Part shown: piece by piece, positions 2,471-54,206 of the stretch
Numbering within the stretch: position 1 is the stretch's first letter
Layout of the letters: the number at the start of each line of letters is the position of its first letter
Assembly (NCBI GenBank): GCA_016700315.1
Contig: CP065013.1
Span: forward strand, 853,298 to 917,297
Length of the DNA: 64,000 nt
Direction: 5' to 3'
Source of the DNA: Candidatus Saccharimonadota bacterium
GTDB taxonomy: Bacteria; Patescibacteriota; Saccharimonadia; Saccharimonadales; SZUA-47
Translations under genes and position numbers: made by a program
The notes under the pieces: generated by a model
Databases searched by the model: none
Told to the model about the DNA's origin: nothing
The model's input: the letters and a program-made list of their open reading frames with translations, nothing else

Positions 2471-3817
2471 TTACTTCAAATAAGTGTTAAGCGCGGTCTT
2501 GATATCGCCGACTGTTTCAAGCTTGGTTGGGCTTTTGCCTTTACCTAGTACTTTTGGTCCTATGGCAACTTCGAAGCCGATCTTTGTGGCTTCATCGACG
2601 CGTTTATCTACAAATGGCACGTGTCTGACTTCGCCAGAAAGTCCGACCTCACCGAAGACAACAGCATTTTTGGATAGCTTGAGACCCTTCGCTGCTGAGC
2701 CGATTGCCATGCAAACTGCAAGATCACTAGCTGGCTCGCTTAGTTTTATGCCGCCAACAACATTCAAAAAAATATCTTTGTCAGAAAGCTGGAGCTTTGT
2801 TCGCTTTTCGAGCATAGCGACCAGTAGATTTAGTCGATTGACATCAAAGCCGCTGGCTGTACGCTTAGGGTAGCCAAAACTGCTACGATTCACTAATGCC
2901 TGGATTTCGACTAATAGCGCGCGGCTACCTTCGATAGTTGCCATTACGACTGAACCGTCGCTACTTACCCGTTCGGCTAAAAGAGCGGCAGAAGGGTTAG
3001 CGACCGGCGAAAGGCCAGATTCAGCCATCTCAAAAATTCCCACCTCATGCGTCGCGCCGTATCTATTTTTCTGAGCGCGTAACAGCTTGAATCCTCCGAA
3101 TTTGTCGCCTTCGAGATTGAGTACTACATCTACGCTGTGTTCAAGTAGTTTAGGGCCGGCAATCGAGCCTTCCTTGGTCACATGCCCAACAATTATCAGT
3201 ATGGTTGCGCTTCTTTTGGCAGCTTGAGTGAGCAGCTGCGAGCTATGCGTTATTTGACTCATCGTTCCGGCAGCAGAACTGATTTCTGCGCATGCAACAG
3301 TTTGAATAGAATCGACGATAACCAATCCATAATTTTTGCTGGCGATGGCGGCCGCTATATCGTTGGCTGAGCTGCTAGCAGCAAGCTCTATTTCATCATG
3401 ATTGGCCTTTAGCCTGCGAGCGCGGTCTGCAACCTGGCCGACAGATTCTTCGCCGCTAACGTAAAGCACCTTGGCTGAATCTGCTATCGCTTTGGCGATC
3501 TGCATCAGTAGCGTGCTCTTGCCAACGCCGGGTTCTCCAGCGAGAAGTAGCACGCTAGCGGGTACAAAACCTCCACCTAAAACTGTATCTATCTCGCCTA
3601 CGCCAGTTTTTAGTCGTTTCTCATCATCACGGAATCCCTTAACTAGTTTCTCGGCTTTTAGCGGGACACCATGTGCCGCTTTTGTGCCTGGACTGGCAGC
3701 TATGGAGACTTGTTCTTCTAGTGTGTTCCATTCGCCGCACGAACTACACTTGCCGCTCCAACTACCGTAGACAGCCCCACAATTTGCACACAAAAAACTA
3801 GTTTTACTCTTGGCCAT
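2471..3817 (-). CDS. radA: DNA repair protein RadA/Sms
   Basis: N-terminal zinc ribbon CANCG...CSSCGEWNT, Walker A GEPGVGKST, KNRYG motif, Lon-like C-terminal region. Its stop codon abuts the PBP stop codon. Confidence 0.95.
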   Translation of the reverse strand: MAKSKTSFLCANCGAVYGSWSGKCSSCGEWNTLEEQVSIAASPGTKAAHGVPLKAEKLVKGFRDDEKRLKTGVGEIDTVLGGGFVPASVLLLAGEPGVGKSTLLMQIAKAIADSAKVLYVSGEESVGQVADRARRLKANHDEIELAASSSANDIAAAIASKNYGLVIVDSIQTVACAEISSAAGTMSQITHSSQLLTQAAKRSATILIIVGHVTKEGSIAGPKLLEHSVDVVLNLEGDKFGGFKLLRAQKNRYGATHEVGIFEMAESGLSPVANPSAALLAERVSSDGSVVMATIEGSRALLVEIQALVNRSSFGYPKRTASGFDVNRLNLLVAMLEKRTKLQLSDKDIFLNVVGGIKLSEPASDLAVCMAIGSAAKGLKLSKNAVVFGEVGLSGEVRHVPFVDKRVDEATKIGFEVAIGPKVLGKGKSPTKLETVGDIKTALNTYLK

Positions 3818-4165: not shown

Positions 4166-5413
4166 ATGACATTATCAGAGGAGCTACTGTGGCGAGGATT
4201 CGTCCAGCAAACAACGTACCAAGACCTAAAAGCAATCGACAAGACGAAGCCAGCTTTTTATCACGGCTTTGATGCCAGTGCTGATTCACAGACTGTCGGC
4301 AATCTTGCGGCGATGATGTTCGACAAAGTTCTCATGCGGCACGGTTGTAAGGCGGTGATTTTGGCGGGCGGTGCGACTAGTTTGATTGGCGACCCCGGCG
4401 GCAAAGACAAAGAGAGAGTTCTTCAGGATGAAAAAACAATTGCTCACAACGTCGCTCAGGCACAGATTCAGTTAAGCAAAATTTTTGATGGCCTGGAGTT
4501 TGAGATGGTTAATAATCTTGACTGGACTAGGGATATGACTGTTCTGAGTTTCCTGCGCGATATCGGTAAGCATTACTCGATGACGCCGCTGATACAACGA
4601 GACTACATTGCGCAGCGTATCGGTGAAGGCGGAGCTGGTATTAGCTACACTGAGTTTAGCTATACACTTCTGCAAGGAATGGACTTTCTTCATTTATACG
4701 ACAAGTATGGAGTAACACTGCAGCTTGGTGGTTCAGATCAGTGGGGCAACTGCCTCTCTGGTGTTGATCTAATACGTAAAGCTCGTGGCGTTGAGGTCCA
4801 TACAATAACACTACCTCTAGTCATAAACAGAGCTACAGGTAAAAAGTTTGGTAAGAGTGAAGAAGGGGCAGTGTGGTTAGATCCAACCAAGACTAGTCCG
4901 TTTAAGTTTTACCAGTTCTGGATAAACCTAGATGACGACGGTGTGGAGGGCTATCTCAAGGTCTACACAGAGCTAGACAAAGAATCAATAGACGAAATAA
5001 TGGAATCTCATAATCAGTCAAAGGGCAATCGTTTGGCACAGAAGCATCTTGCTTATCAAGTTTCAAAAATATTGCATGGTGAAAAAACGGCTGACTCTAT
5101 GCAGAGGATAAGCGAAACTCTCTTTGGCGGCCAAAACTATTCAGAGCTTAGCTCGGAGGATATGGAAGTGTTAGCAGGTGAGTTACCGGTTGTCGAATCG
5201 GGGTACGACAAAACACTGAGTGATATCTTGATCGAAGGTGATTTGGCGGCCAGCAAGAGCGAAGCACGAAGATTTTTGGCCTCTAATGCCGTTTATATTA
5301 ACGGCGAACAGTTTTCTAGCGAGAAGCAAACGCTTGACGGCTCAGATAACATTCACGGCTATGCGGTTCTCCGACGTGGTAAAAACAACACAATTTTAGT
5401 AAAGCTAAACTAA
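4166..5413 (+). CDS. tyrS: Tyrosyl-tRNA synthetase
   Basis: Class I aaRS. KFGKS (KMSKS-type) motif, GGSDQWGN, C-terminal S4-like domain. Confidence 0.93.
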   Translation: MTLSEELLWRGFVQQTTYQDLKAIDKTKPAFYHGFDASADSQTVGNLAAMMFDKVLMRHGCKAVILAGGATSLIGDPGGKDKERVLQDEKTIAHNVAQAQIQLSKIFDGLEFEMVNNLDWTRDMTVLSFLRDIGKHYSMTPLIQRDYIAQRIGEGGAGISYTEFSYTLLQGMDFLHLYDKYGVTLQLGGSDQWGNCLSGVDLIRKARGVEVHTITLPLVINRATGKKFGKSEEGAVWLDPTKTSPFKFYQFWINLDDDGVEGYLKVYTELDKESIDEIMESHNQSKGNRLAQKHLAYQVSKILHGEKTADSMQRISETLFGGQNYSELSSEDMEVLAGELPVVESGYDKTLSDILIEGDLAASKSEARRFLASNAVYINGEQFSSEKQTLDGSDNIHGYAVLRRGKNNTILVKLN

Positions 5414-52264: not shown

Positions 52265-52921
52265 ATGTCTGCAATTTTAATCGTTTTTGGTTTGGCCGTT
52301 TTTGCTCTACTAAGTGGAAAGCTAAAAGACGAGGAAGCTTCACCCGTACCCCTCAAATTAAGCGATCGGCTAGGCGGTTTATGGGATATTGCCCATAACG
52401 GTATGCGTGAAAACCGTTTTTTAAGAGCTGAAAAAGCACTGCTAACAATACTGAAAATTGATCAAAAAAATGCAGCTGCCTACAACCGTCTCGGTATCCT
52501 TTATGCCAAACAGAAAGAGTTCAAAGATGCTATTGATTGTTTCGAAATTGCCAGTAGCATCGAGCCATCAGCGTCTTCACTACATAATCTCGGTCTAATA
52601 TATTACGAAACGGAGCATTACGAAAAAGCAGCACTGGCATTCGAACAAGCCCTTAAGCTAGAGGGCGACCTAGCTGCAAGACATATTGCCTACGCAAAAG
52701 TTCAAGAAAAGTTAGGTAACGGCAGGGTGGTGCTAAGCGAACTAGAGAAAGCAGCTGAACTAGAACCAAACCAAGAATCTTTTAAACTTCTGCACAAAGC
52801 CTATTTGGACCGCGATATGCACGAGCAGGCAAGCGTAATTGAGCGTAGGCTGCAAAAGATGATTACAACCACCACAGGCAAACGCCGTCGCATACTTCGC
52901 CCCAAGCGCGTCGTTGTCTAA
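52265..52921 (+). CDS. Membrane-anchored TPR-repeat protein
   Basis: N-terminal TM helix followed by TPR-like repeats (AAAYNRLGILYAKQKEFKDAIDCFE...). Confidence 0.75.
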   Translation: MSAILIVFGLAVFALLSGKLKDEEASPVPLKLSDRLGGLWDIAHNGMRENRFLRAEKALLTILKIDQKNAAAYNRLGILYAKQKEFKDAIDCFEIASSIEPSASSLHNLGLIYYETEHYEKAALAFEQALKLEGDLAARHIAYAKVQEKLGNGRVVLSELEKAAELEPNQESFKLLHKAYLDRDMHEQASVIERRLQKMITTTTGKRRRILRPKRVVV

Positions 52922-52946
52922 AGTACTTTAAAAATATTTACCTCTC

Positions 52947-52955
52947 TGTTAAAAT
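52947..52955 (+). promoter_or_regulatory. Extended -10 TGTTAAAAT upstream of the tRNA cluster
   Basis: The same 11-mer TCTGTTAAAAT occurs upstream of tig and rpmG. It lies 22 nt before tRNA-Tyr. Confidence 0.5.
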
Positions 52956-52976
52956 GCTTTAGTGTCTTAAAGAAAT

Positions 52977-53062
52977 GCAGAGGTAGTGAAGCGGTCAAAC
53001 ACGGCAGACTGTAAATCTGTTGGCTTTCGCCTTCGGGGGTTCGAATCCCTCCCTCTGCACCA
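52977..53062 (+). tRNA. tRNA-Tyr (anticodon GUA), CCA encoded
   Basis: Acceptor GCAGAGG/CCTCTGC, anticodon loop CTGTAAA, long variable arm, T-loop TTCGAAT. Confidence 0.9.
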
Positions 53063-53065
53063 CAT

Positions 53066-53142
53066 GCCACCTTAGCTCAGTTGGTTAGAGCGTCAGTTTT
53101 GTAAACTGAATGTCGTCGGTTCGAATCCGACAGGTGGCTCCA
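53066..53142 (+). tRNA. tRNA-Thr (anticodon UGU), CCA encoded
   Basis: Acceptor GCCACCT/AGGTGGC, D arm GCTCAGTTGGTTAGAGC, anticodon loop TTTGTAA, T arm GTCGGTTCGAATCCGAC. Confidence 0.92.
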
Positions 53143-53625
53143 GACACATGGAGGATGAGAAACGAAGGTTCGATATTCCCCCGTCCGCTGCAAAGCGGAC
53201 AAAACGGGCGGAATATATGCTAAAGTGCACCGCACTGAAGCTATAATCCGACAGGTGGCTCCAGACACATGGAGGATAAGAACCGAAGGTTCGATATTCC
53301 CCCGTCCGCTGCAAAGCGGACAAAACGGGCGGAATATATGCTAAAGTGCACCGCACTGAAGCTATAATCCGACAGGTGGCTCCAGACACATGGAGGATGA
53401 GAACCGAAGGTTCGATATTCCCCCGTCCGCTGCAAAGCGGACAAAACGGGCGGAATATATGCTAAAGTGCACCACACTGAAGCTATAATCCGACAGGTGG
53501 CTCCAGACACATGGCGGATGAGAATTGAAGGTTCGATATTCAGTAGTAATCCCCAGCGTAGCGGGCTGTTCGATTGAATATATGCTGAAGCTAAAAGCGA
53601 AGCAATAATCCGACAGGTGGCTCCA
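53143..53625 (+). repeat. Four tandem units (121, 121, 121, 120 bp), each ending in the 19-nt 3' end of tRNA-Thr(UGU)
   Basis: Units start at 53143, 53264, 53385 and 53506. AATCCGACAGGTGGCTCCA occurs at 53245-63, 53366-84, 53487-505 and 53607-25, plus the original at 53124-42. Units 1-3 are near-identical and unit 4 is diverged internally. Confidence 0.97.
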
Positions 53626-53635
53626 TTATTTTAGT

Positions 53636-53710
<75 letters not shown>

Positions 53711-53740
53711 TGCCGTACAACTAATCAAACAAACATGCAA

Positions 53741-53767
53741 AGTCGGCAATCAAATGGCCGACTTTTA
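53741..53767 (+). terminator. Rho-independent terminator after the tRNA cluster
   Basis: AGTCGGC-AATCAAATG-GCCGACT followed by TTTTAGTTT. Confidence 0.75.
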
Positions 53768-53930
53768 GTTTGGTCTAGTTGAAGTACTCCTTTCAAAATT
53801 AAATATGAATTTATTTCTTATTTCTAGCAGAAAATTGGCTAGGTCTTGCATTGTTACACTTTTACGCCAAATAAACGAGATTGATTACGGACTAGGTCTA
53901 ATTGAATATCCACCAAATTTGGTTAACATG

Positions 53931-53959
53931 TTGTAATGATAATCTATATCTGTTAAAAT
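53931..53959 (+). promoter_or_regulatory. Putative rpmG promoter TTGTAA-N17-TAAAAT (extended TG), 7 nt before the ATG
   Basis: -35 at 53931-36, TGTTAAAAT at 53951-59, ATG at 53967. Confidence 0.55.
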
Positions 53960-53966
53960 AAGATCT

Positions 53967-54173
53967 ATGGCGAAAAAAGGCGATAAAAGAAAACTAGTTG
54001 GCCTGGTTAGCAGTGAGACAAACCATCGTACTTACTATACTGTTAAAAATACGATGAATACTCCAGACAAACTTAAGCTCAAAAAATACGACCCGATTGC
54101 AAGAAAACACGTGGTCTATGAAGAGACTAAGAAAAACCTAGGCCGCAACGAAGTCAAACCTCGTAAAGGCTAA
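53967..54173 (+). CDS. rpmG: 50S ribosomal protein L33 (Cys-less form, C-terminal extension)
   Basis: MAKKGDKRKLVGLVSSETNHRTYYTVKNTMNTPDKLKLKKYDPIARKHVVYEETK. Confidence 0.88.
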   Translation: MAKKGDKRKLVGLVSSETNHRTYYTVKNTMNTPDKLKLKKYDPIARKHVVYEETKKNLGRNEVKPRKG

Positions 54174-54206
54174 ACTATAAGTTAATAGTTTATGGTTAAT
54201 AGTTGA

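Follow-up and report, generated by a model that had tools for sequence, protein, structure and literature searches.

RtT-like tandem repeats directly downstream of tRNA-Thr(UGU) in a Saccharibacteria genome

INTRODUCTION

The repeats downstream of the transfer RNA (tRNA) genes tyrT and tyrV of Escherichia coli, which were sequenced around 1980, are the closest described counterpart of the element reported here, an array of four head-to-tail units directly behind the tRNA-Thr(UGU) gene of a Candidatus Saccharimonadota bacterium. The array lies in a stretch of 64,000 nucleotides (contig CP065013.1 of assembly GCA_016700315.1, positions 853,298 to 917,297 of the forward strand). This whole stretch is referred to as the window, and all positions are given relative to its first letter. 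In the E. coli K-12 record, 3.1 units of 178 bp follow tyrV, and one further copy lies between tyrT and tyrV. Each unit ends in AATCCTTCCCCCACCACCA, the 3' end of tRNA-Tyr. The Rfam family RtT (RF00391) recognizes all four E. coli copies with 133 to 137 bits, and rttR is annotated as a 171-nt noncoding RNA that starts 7 nt behind the CCA of tyrV and stops at the CCA that follows. This is exactly the architecture of the window array. A preliminary description of the locus, which stated that no element with this architecture had been described, was wrong on this point, since the E. coli tyrT/tyrV repeats (rtT/RttR, RF00391) already represent it.

The rtT RNA was described in 1991 by Bosl and Kersten, according to the citation in PMC3318445, and the literature on rtT goes no further than suggesting a link to the stringent response and to the processing of the tyrT transcript, with an abundance that depends on stress. 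Covariation analyses of RtT revealed a tandem GA enclosed by a covarying helix (PMC8250186, PMC7657543).

RESULTS

Four units that end in a copy of the tRNA-Thr 3' end

The host gene, tRNA-Thr(UGU), was identified by ARAGORN and Rfam at positions 53066 to 53142 of the plus strand. Its last 19 nt (53124 to 53142), AATCCGACAGGTGGCTCCA, are copied at the end of every unit and comprise the 3' part of the T loop, the 3' strands of the T stem and the acceptor stem, the discriminator, and CCA. The units measure 121, 121, 121, and 120 nt and start at 53143, 53264, 53385, and 53506, with unit 1 beginning at the base after the CCA of tRNA-Thr(UGU). Tandem Repeats Finder reports a period of 121 nt with 97% matches and a score of 794 between the two tRNA-Thr genes of the locus. 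The 19-mer occurs five times, at spacings of 121, 121, 121, and 120 nt, and is identical at all 19 positions in the four units. No further copy with up to two mismatches is found in the 64 kb, where shuffled sequences predict 0. The layout proposed in the preliminary description, with tRNA-Thr(UGU), four units, and five copies of the 19-mer, is therefore confirmed by ARAGORN, Rfam, and Tandem Repeats Finder.

The units are of two types, all on the plus strand. Units 1 (53143 to 53263), 2 (53264 to 53384), and 3 (53385 to 53505) are A-type units, which are 97 to 98% identical throughout and differ at three positions (15, 20, and 90). Unit 4 (53506 to 53625) is the terminal, B-type unit. Its two ends are identical to those of units 1 to 3, while its interior is strongly diverged, as had been noted, with the core and the predicted topology kept. 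The core is exact in unit 3, where it reads GGAUGAGAACC-GAA-GGUUCGA. Unit 1 carries an A·G mismatch in hairpin 1 (GAAAC/GGUUC), unit 2 has the core GGAUAAGAACC (G15 changed to A, giving GAUAAG) and represents the variant that is most frequent in other strains, and in unit 4, the sequence GAAUU pairs via U·G.

The predicted fold of the unit is a four-way junction formed by a closing helix and hairpins 1, 2, and 3. The plus strand of units 1 to 3 has a minimum free energy (MFE) of −45 to −49 kcal/mol, with z scores of −4.5 to −5.5 and none of 200 shuffled sequences folding as well, and the minus strand of the same units folds worse (z score of −2.6). All three hairpins of the preliminary description are present in this MFE fold. 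In the closing helix, positions 1 to 14 (GACACAUGGAGGAU) are opposed to positions 104 to 117 (AUCCGACAGGUGGC) in the register of a tRNA acceptor stem stacked on a T stem. The fold contains nine standard pairs (C3-G115, A4-U114, C5-G113, U7-A111, G8-C110, and G11-C107 to U14-A104), to which inspection adds G1-C117, for 10 of 14 positions. Unit 4 adds C10-G108. The discriminator U and CCA are left unpaired.

In unit 3, the 5' strand of the closing helix lies at 53385 to 53398 and is predicted to pair with 53488 to 53501, in a helix that covaries in the family described below. Hairpin 1 (GAACC-GAA-GGUUC, 53401 to 53413), the conserved RtT core, is flanked by GA on both sides (53399 to 53400 and 53414 to 53415). 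Hairpin 2 is the long stem AUAUUCCCCCGUCCGC...GCGGAC...CGGGCGGAAUAU (53415 to 53458), and hairpin 3 (GCU..AGUG-CACCA-CACU..AGC) is predicted at 53461 to 53483. The unit finishes at 53487 to 53505 with the copy of the tRNA-Thr 3' end, which runs from the 3' part of the T loop through the 3' strands of the T stem and acceptor and the discriminator U to CCA.

Two stems are maintained between the unit types by compensatory changes, which had been pointed out for unit 4 and are real. The long stem changes from AUAUUCC/GGAAUAU in the A-type units to AUAUUCA/UGAAUAU in unit 4. Hairpin 1 changes from GAACC/GGUUC to GAAUU/GGUUC in unit 4 of the window, with two U·G pairs, and reads GAAUU/GAUUC in the B-type units of other strains, which corresponds to a C-G to U-A change plus a U·G pair. 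Unit 4 of the window taken alone folds more weakly (z score of −1.5), with the family fold 2.6 kcal/mol above its MFE. The unconstrained MFE fold of the B-type units of other strains is the same four-way junction, despite their diverged interior.

The preliminary description had read each unit as a T arm split by an insert. The motif GGTTCGA is indeed present, at a distance of 71 nt upstream of the 19-mer (70 nt in unit 4) and not 72 nt, and its GGUUC is better read as the 3' strand of hairpin 1. A T arm reconstituted from GAAGG and the T-stem 3' strand across the 71-nt insert would form only three of five pairs in the window units. Such an arm works for E. coli tRNA-Tyr (AAGG/CCUU), but covariation with the host T stem is seen for the 5' strand lying upstream and not for AAGG.

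Three other identities were considered for the array. Neither ARAGORN nor the Rfam tRNA model (RF00005) calls a tRNA or tRNA pseudogene inside 53143 to 53625, and only the three flanking tRNAs are called. The resemblance to a hammerhead ribozyme (GAUGAG...CGA) fails on inspection, since the positions of C3 and U4 are occupied by A/C and G and that of A14 by U, and Rfam gave no hammerhead match at the locus at an E value of ≤10. A CRISPR array is excluded by the repetition of whole 121-nt units with no unique spacers.

The units carry the RtT core

In the Rfam RtT consensus, the 5' strand and core read GgGaaGGAUGAGAAcCUUCGaccaAGGUuCGA and the 3' part reads UaAUCCuuCcCccaCCACCA. The counterparts in the window unit are AUGGAGGAUGAGAACC-GAA-GGUUCGA and UAAUCCGACAGGUGGCUCCA. 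Both have a 5' strand complementary to the 3' end of the host tRNA, GGAU/AUCC, the GA-flanked hairpin, and UAAUCC. They share the core GGAUGAGAACC-loop-GGUUCGA...UAAUCC, whose first part has the form GGAUGAGAAcC in the Rfam consensus, and a multihairpin junction. Hairpin 1 of the window units shows the tandem-GA arrangement reported for RtT (PMC8250186, PMC7657543).

A covariance model, R1, was built from 54 sequences from outside the window and used to search both strands of the 64 kb. It finds exactly the four units, each at full length, with scores of 24.8 bits for unit 3 (E value of 1.8e-4), 22.4 bits for unit 1 (8e-4), 21.1 bits for unit 4 (1.7e-3), and 20.4 bits for unit 2 (2.5e-3); these E values are rough. 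No other match is obtained in the 64 kb at an E value of ≤10, and the four tRNAs of the window are not matched. In the R1 alignment, the long hairpin of the units falls at the position of the family hairpin H2.

An RtT-like family behind other tRNAs

A scan of species-representative genomes with the core pattern GATGAGAA N2-8 AAGGTTCGA N50-80 TAATCC, for which about two chance matches are expected by our estimate, returned at least 120 matches. When the listed loci (designated here by L numbers) were rescanned with a looser pattern and with ARAGORN, at least 141 instances were obtained, nearly all of them 8 to 80 nt (most 30 to 70 nt) downstream of a tRNA gene on the same strand. Among the matches listed, the host tRNAs cover about 10 identities, with Gln the most frequent and Lys, Tyr, Arg, Ser, Val, Ala, Pro, and Met also represented. 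The host organisms among the matches listed, which give a lower bound for the distribution across phyla, are mostly Gammaproteobacteria, with a few Bacteroidota (L063 and L119), Verrucomicrobia (L052), and Gemmatimonadetes (L062). In these elements, TAATCC is followed by the host tRNA's own 3' end, and the complement of this end precedes GATGAGAA/GAUGAGAA, as in L010, where GACGGCAG is followed by GAT and, at the other end, ATCC is followed by TGCCGTC. Tandem arrays of two to three units are common and are present in L005, L010, L024, L081, L115, and L119. In L062 and L119, the tRNA gene does not encode CCA and the element likewise lacks it, which points to copying at the gene level. The Rfam RtT model reaches its gathering score on gammaproteobacterial copies linked to tRNA-Lys, tRNA-Gln, and tRNA-Arg, showing that in Rfam terms, the family is already broader than "tyrT."

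Single-sequence folds of about 27 diverse members give a closing helix, hairpin 1 flanked by GA, and then two to four hairpins. In an alignment of 54 diverse members, from which the window sequences were excluded, 86% of the cells of the four-helix structure are paired, versus 73% in shuffled alignments, and 194 cells show a double change, versus 72 in the shuffles. When the partners were slid as a control, 28 to 48% of the cells were paired. This family-wide covariation supports a common predicted RNA structure. Within it, the aligned sequences indicate that the closing helix has a 5' strand that covaries with the host tRNA in every case and so tracks the tRNA 3' end; this points to selection for a helix resembling the tRNA top half and not for the tRNA sequence itself. 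Hairpin 1 does not covary and is invariant in sequence, including in 38 copies found by the model outside the pattern, which suggests sequence-specific recognition.

Several members of the family are unusual in their setting. In a Flammeovirgaceae metagenome-assembled genome (L119, 1705 to 2250), three tandem RtT-like units follow tRNA-Val(UAC), and the repeat extends over the trailer of the tRNA and over a hairpin of terminator type (AAAGGCTGT...ACAGCCTTTTTTT). With such a terminator ahead of every unit, it may be asked how the units are expressed. In a Spartobacteria metagenome-assembled genome (L052, approximately 3582 to 3706, minus strand), the element lies between tRNA-Ala and tRNA-Ile in the 16S-23S spacer, and the module would thus belong to an rRNA precursor. 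Two Thioalkalivibrio loci (L092, 2482 to 2609, and L033, 7622 to 7749) contain degenerate second copies in which GGAUGAGAACC is replaced by GGGUUCGAACC and CCAGG-GUUCGAA-CCUGG forms a true T-arm-like hairpin. These copies may be intermediates between a tRNA 3' half and the RtT core.

Genomic setting and distribution in Saccharibacteria

The array adjoins tRNA genes on both sides, all on the same strand. The cluster begins with tRNA-Tyr(GUA) (52977 to 53062), separated by a 3-nt spacer from tRNA-Thr(UGU), and ends with tRNA-Thr(GGU) (53636 to 53710), 10 nt after unit 4; both were identified on the plus strand by ARAGORN and Rfam. A sigma-70-like promoter candidate precedes the cluster at 52927 to 52955 (TTTAAA/TTAAAA, a spacer of 16 to 17 nt, and a TG-extended TAAAAT) and represents a consensus match only. 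Downstream, a terminator-like hairpin with 12-bp arms and a 3-nt loop is present at 53739 to 53771, where the inverted repeat (53739 to 53765) runs into UUUUAGUUU. The shared promoter and terminator put forward in the preliminary description are thus matched by a promoter-like site and by an inverted repeat before a run of T's, but the terminator scan did not call the latter. The same scan found no terminator-like site inside the array.

The neighboring genes are trpS, an rluA-like gene, holB, and genes for a TPR protein, rpmG, GH15, GH57, and a glycosyltransferase; the proteins flanking the array match exactly the NCBI entries QQS64842 to QQS64847, which carry the annotation Candidatus Saccharibacteria bacterium and lie on a contig of 988,272 bp. 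Minus-strand open reading frames (ORFs) of 63, 98, and 89 codons cross the repeats (53077 to 53510) and were treated as by-products of the repetition. As a length of 121 nt is not divisible by 3, their frame changes with each unit.

Relatives of the same species were collected as contigs with an identical L33 protein plus one metagenome contig. These carry two to four units, of which the last is invariably of the B type, and each contig has at least one unit of the A type. At least one unit is present in eight further independent assemblies, and at least two units are present in seven of these. Some of the contigs have N gaps inside the array, which makes exact copy numbers from short reads unreliable. 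More distant loci were found by synteny, via holB homologues, and searched for units with R1 at an E value of ≤1. Six such Saccharibacteria loci, with holB proteins 36 to 60% identical, have kept trpS, the rluA-like gene, holB, the TPR protein gene, and the tRNA-Thr/Tyr/Thr genes, with rpmG nearby in five of the six. A metagenome scan anchored on the tRNA-Thr end found no intermediate relatives; its only matches were a further same-lineage contig (L134) and a chance match in a coding region (L133).

The order and orientation of the tRNA genes vary among Saccharibacteria lineages though the flanking genes are conserved. The window has the order Tyr-Thr(UGU)-Thr(GGU) (52977 to 53710), L135, L142, and L144 have Thr(UGU)-Tyr-Thr(GGU), and L143 has Thr(GGU)-Tyr-Thr(UGU), while in L139 and L141, two of the three genes are on the opposite strand. 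In the nearest relatives, L135 (5728 to 6008; Logan SRR26912379) and L139 (5094 to 5387; GCA_964476795.1), tRNA-Thr(GGU) is split after the anticodon, with ...CATCCATGGT and AAGGATGAGGTC... separated by approximately 215 nt, and ARAGORN makes no call for this split gene. The insertion contains AAGATACAGTCTAG, which we take to resemble the core of a group I intron, and Rfam gave no group I match at an E value of ≤0.01. The tRNA-Thr(GGU) gene of the window has no insertion. In L139, the inverted tRNA-Tyr/tRNA-Thr(UGU) pair is separated from the interrupted tRNA-Thr(GGU) gene by an ORF of 211 amino acids (4508 to 5143), which has no Pfam match on record and may be an intron-associated or mobile gene.

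DISCUSSION

Identity of the array

Taken as a whole, the data are best explained if the four units are RtT-like RNA modules, compact and distant relatives of the E. coli tyrT/tyrV repeats, and we consider this identification probable. Several observations weigh against it. Part of the search pattern that gave the R1 training set came from the window, so that the conserved columns of the model are biased, and the R1 scores of the window units (20 to 25 bits) are the lowest of all matches. The Rfam RtT model gives no match in positions 52500 to 54200 at an E value of ≤10 and none in the whole window at its gathering threshold of 45 bits; these Rfam searches recovered tRNAs only. For these three reasons, the array is filed as a divergent variant and not as a formal member of RF00391. 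In addition, the commonest A-type unit reads GAUAAG instead of GAUGAG, and the four positions of the closing helix that do not pair are all purine-purine mismatches. The MFE fold of the whole operon favors hairpins that bridge the unit borders (AUCCGACAGGUG[GCUCCAGA]CACAUGGAGGAU) over closure within each unit; the two folds compete, as both use the same strands. The strand test of G·U against A·C in the family alignment did not discriminate between the strands (60 versus 58). Finally, none of the six distant syntenic loci contains a unit (R1 at an E value of ≤1), so that the element is patchy in its distribution and dispensable for the clade.

The patchy distribution would also fit an array of functionless, perhaps transcribed, tRNA-derived DNA that was amplified selfishly through partial duplications of the tRNA 3' half and unequal crossing-over, its folds being a legacy of the tRNA origin. 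This explanation, which we regard as unlikely, accounts for the near identity of the A-type units, which indicates recent amplification, and for the variation from two to four units across assemblies. It would also fit the first 24 nt of the unit, 17 of which are identical, as judged by eye, to the reverse complement of the T arm and the acceptor 3' strand, and the Bacteroidota repeat L119, whose inclusion of the tRNA trailer and terminator is typical of duplication at the DNA level. However, the interiors of the A- and B-type units are heavily diverged, yet the core, the closing helix, and the hairpin topology are kept. A signature that is not tRNA sequence (AUGAGAA and the GA-flanked hairpin) is likewise kept across phyla and tRNA identities, and the covariation of the 5' strand with the host tRNA requires selection on pairing.

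A local tRNA-derived element that converged on RtT, without homology and with a likeness due only to the universal T-arm sequence (GGUUCGAAUCC), is rather less probable still. GGUUCGA and UAAUCC are T-loop sequence, the Rfam RtT model misses the units, and vertical descent is not visible because the nearest relatives lack units. However, the 11-mer GGAUGAGAACC, which the units have in common with RtT, is not tRNA sequence, and its position with respect to the closing helix and hairpin 1 is the same in both. Moreover, hairpin 2 aligns to the family H2, and R1, which recovers the units, matches none of the window's four tRNAs.

The preliminary description had offered, as one of two hypotheses, that the units are stacked attachment (att) site scars of an element integrating into the tRNA-Thr 3' end. 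Integrases often target and duplicate tRNA 3' ends, and Rfam RtT is among the noncoding RNA models of the Phage_Finder pipeline (PMC12540744). Yet the neighbors of the array are housekeeping genes with no integrase or mobile-element gene among them, phage and plasmid BLAST matches cover the tRNA part only, and the core pattern has a single match in 2.9 million viral contigs, in an E. coli tyrT-like stretch. Scars would also leave unexplained the covarying 5' strand complementary to the tRNA end and a core kept across phyla and about 10 tRNA identities. This hypothesis is therefore abandoned as very improbable.

It is hardly credible that the array is an assembly artifact or a set of small-protein genes like E. 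coli tpr, since, despite N gaps in the array of several short-read scaffolds, contigs that break beside it, and a 32-codon plus-strand ORF in each A-type unit, almost every independent assembly examined has at least two unit types (A and B), the contig that contains the window measures 988 kb, and the ORF meets a TGA at codon 6 in unit 4 and reads the common core in a frame other than that of tpr.

Proposed processing and role

Returning to RtT-like modules as the preferred identity, we infer their transcription, the nuclease that cuts them, and any role that they have from the anatomy of the units and by analogy with E. coli. The other hypothesis of the preliminary description, a set of structured small RNAs that are cotranscribed with the tRNAs and released or marked by the tRNA 3'-end machinery, is sustained by the family covariation as far as structure is concerned, while release follows only what is annotated for E. 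coli rttR. On the best reading, the units would be cotranscribed structured RNA modules that are released at the junctions between CCA and the following G.

A single precursor would contain tRNA-Tyr, tRNA-Thr, the four units, and the second tRNA-Thr, extending from the promoter-like site (52927 to 52955) to the hairpin and U run (53739 to 53771). In this precursor, the tRNA would fold first, leaving the 5' strand of unit 1 free to pair with the unit's own 3' end, and each unit would then close on itself down the array. In a closed unit, the 5' strand and the copy of the tRNA end would form a helix resembling the "top half" of a tRNA, which would close the junction of the GA-flanked hairpin (GGAU-GA-GAACC...GGUUC-GA) and the two variable hairpins. 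A tRNA-processing endonuclease would cut every junction between CCA and G. RNase P is tentatively named as the first candidate, because G1 occupies the +1 position of a tRNA, opposite C117, which is followed by U-CCA. A single cut would complete the CCA end of the upstream RNA and also create the 5' end of the downstream one, yielding RNAs of about 121 nt with tRNA-like 3' ends. The array would grow and shrink by unequal recombination between units. At the level of a guess, held with low confidence, the released RNAs might be stable mimics of the tRNA acceptor end that serve as decoys or regulators.

Significance

The window array is a compact, divergent RtT-like array with a new host tRNA and in a new phylum. 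The RtT design is consequently not an enterobacterial oddity, as its core is found behind at least 10 tRNA identities in hosts from several phyla, to which a bacterium of the candidate phyla radiation with a reduced genome is now added. The spacer-free version of 121 nt delimits a minimal element, composed of the closing helix, the GA-flanked hairpin, and two hairpins, and lends itself to structure probing, RNase P assays, and pull-downs. Since the Rfam RtT model misses divergent members, such repeats in tRNA operons are likely to be reported again as "new."

A broader and doubtful proposal is that RtT-like modules constitute a widespread, largely unrecognized class of bacterial RNAs, built as copies of the host-tRNA "top half" around the invariant GA-flanked hairpin as functional core, and serving as self-delimiting processing cassettes or as acceptor-end decoys in the 1-Mb genome of a symbiont. 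If this were true, one cut of the RNase P type between CCA and G would give a mature tRNA 3' end without exonucleases, the released mimics of the tRNA end would act on factors that bind tRNA ends, and the 121-nt form of Saccharibacteria would define the minimal functional RtT.

Comparison with known systems

As in E. coli RtT, the repeats of the window are arranged head to tail directly downstream of a tRNA gene on the same strand, and each unit finishes with approximately the last 19 nt of the host tRNA, including CCA. The host tRNA is tRNA-Tyr in the Gammaproteobacteria and tRNA-Thr(UGU) in the Saccharibacteria. The E. coli unit of 178 nt has a leader of about 45 nt and three or four variable hairpins, whereas the window unit of 121 nt has no spacer and two such hairpins. 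The perfect 10-bp helix of E. coli leaves an 8-nt 3' overhang, while the helix of the window units reaches the level of the tRNA 1-72 pair but carries the four mismatches. The RtT-like elements behind other tRNAs have the same core, a 3' end identical to that of the host tRNA, and a complementary 5' strand. They differ in lying mostly 20 to 60 nt from the tRNA and in an extra GCCC-GAA-GGGC hairpin, whereas the window units follow without spacer. In contrast to L062 and L119, where CCA is lacking, the window units encode it.

The att sites in tRNA genes resemble the array in that the duplication of the tRNA 3' part starts in the T loop, but the array has no integrase or cargo nearby, and its structured interior is conserved across phyla.

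Two further RNAs derived from longer precursors offer a partial parallel. The 3'ETS-leuZ RNA of E. coli, a sponge that acts by base pairing with small RNAs, resembles the proposed products as a stable by-product of tRNA precursor processing with a function of its own; it has no copy of the tRNA end, no repeats, and no sequence in common with the units. The eukaryotic mascRNA, a tRNA-like RNA from MALAT1, is a full cloverleaf mimic excised by RNase P. The units of the window mimic the stack of acceptor and T stem only and are not called as tRNA by ARAGORN or Rfam, and the Rfam mascRNA model matches only tRNA-Thr(GGU), with 16.8 bits and below threshold. The proposed parallel between the two is the recruitment of tRNA-processing enzymes by a tRNA-like acceptor end, with a single cut setting two RNA ends.

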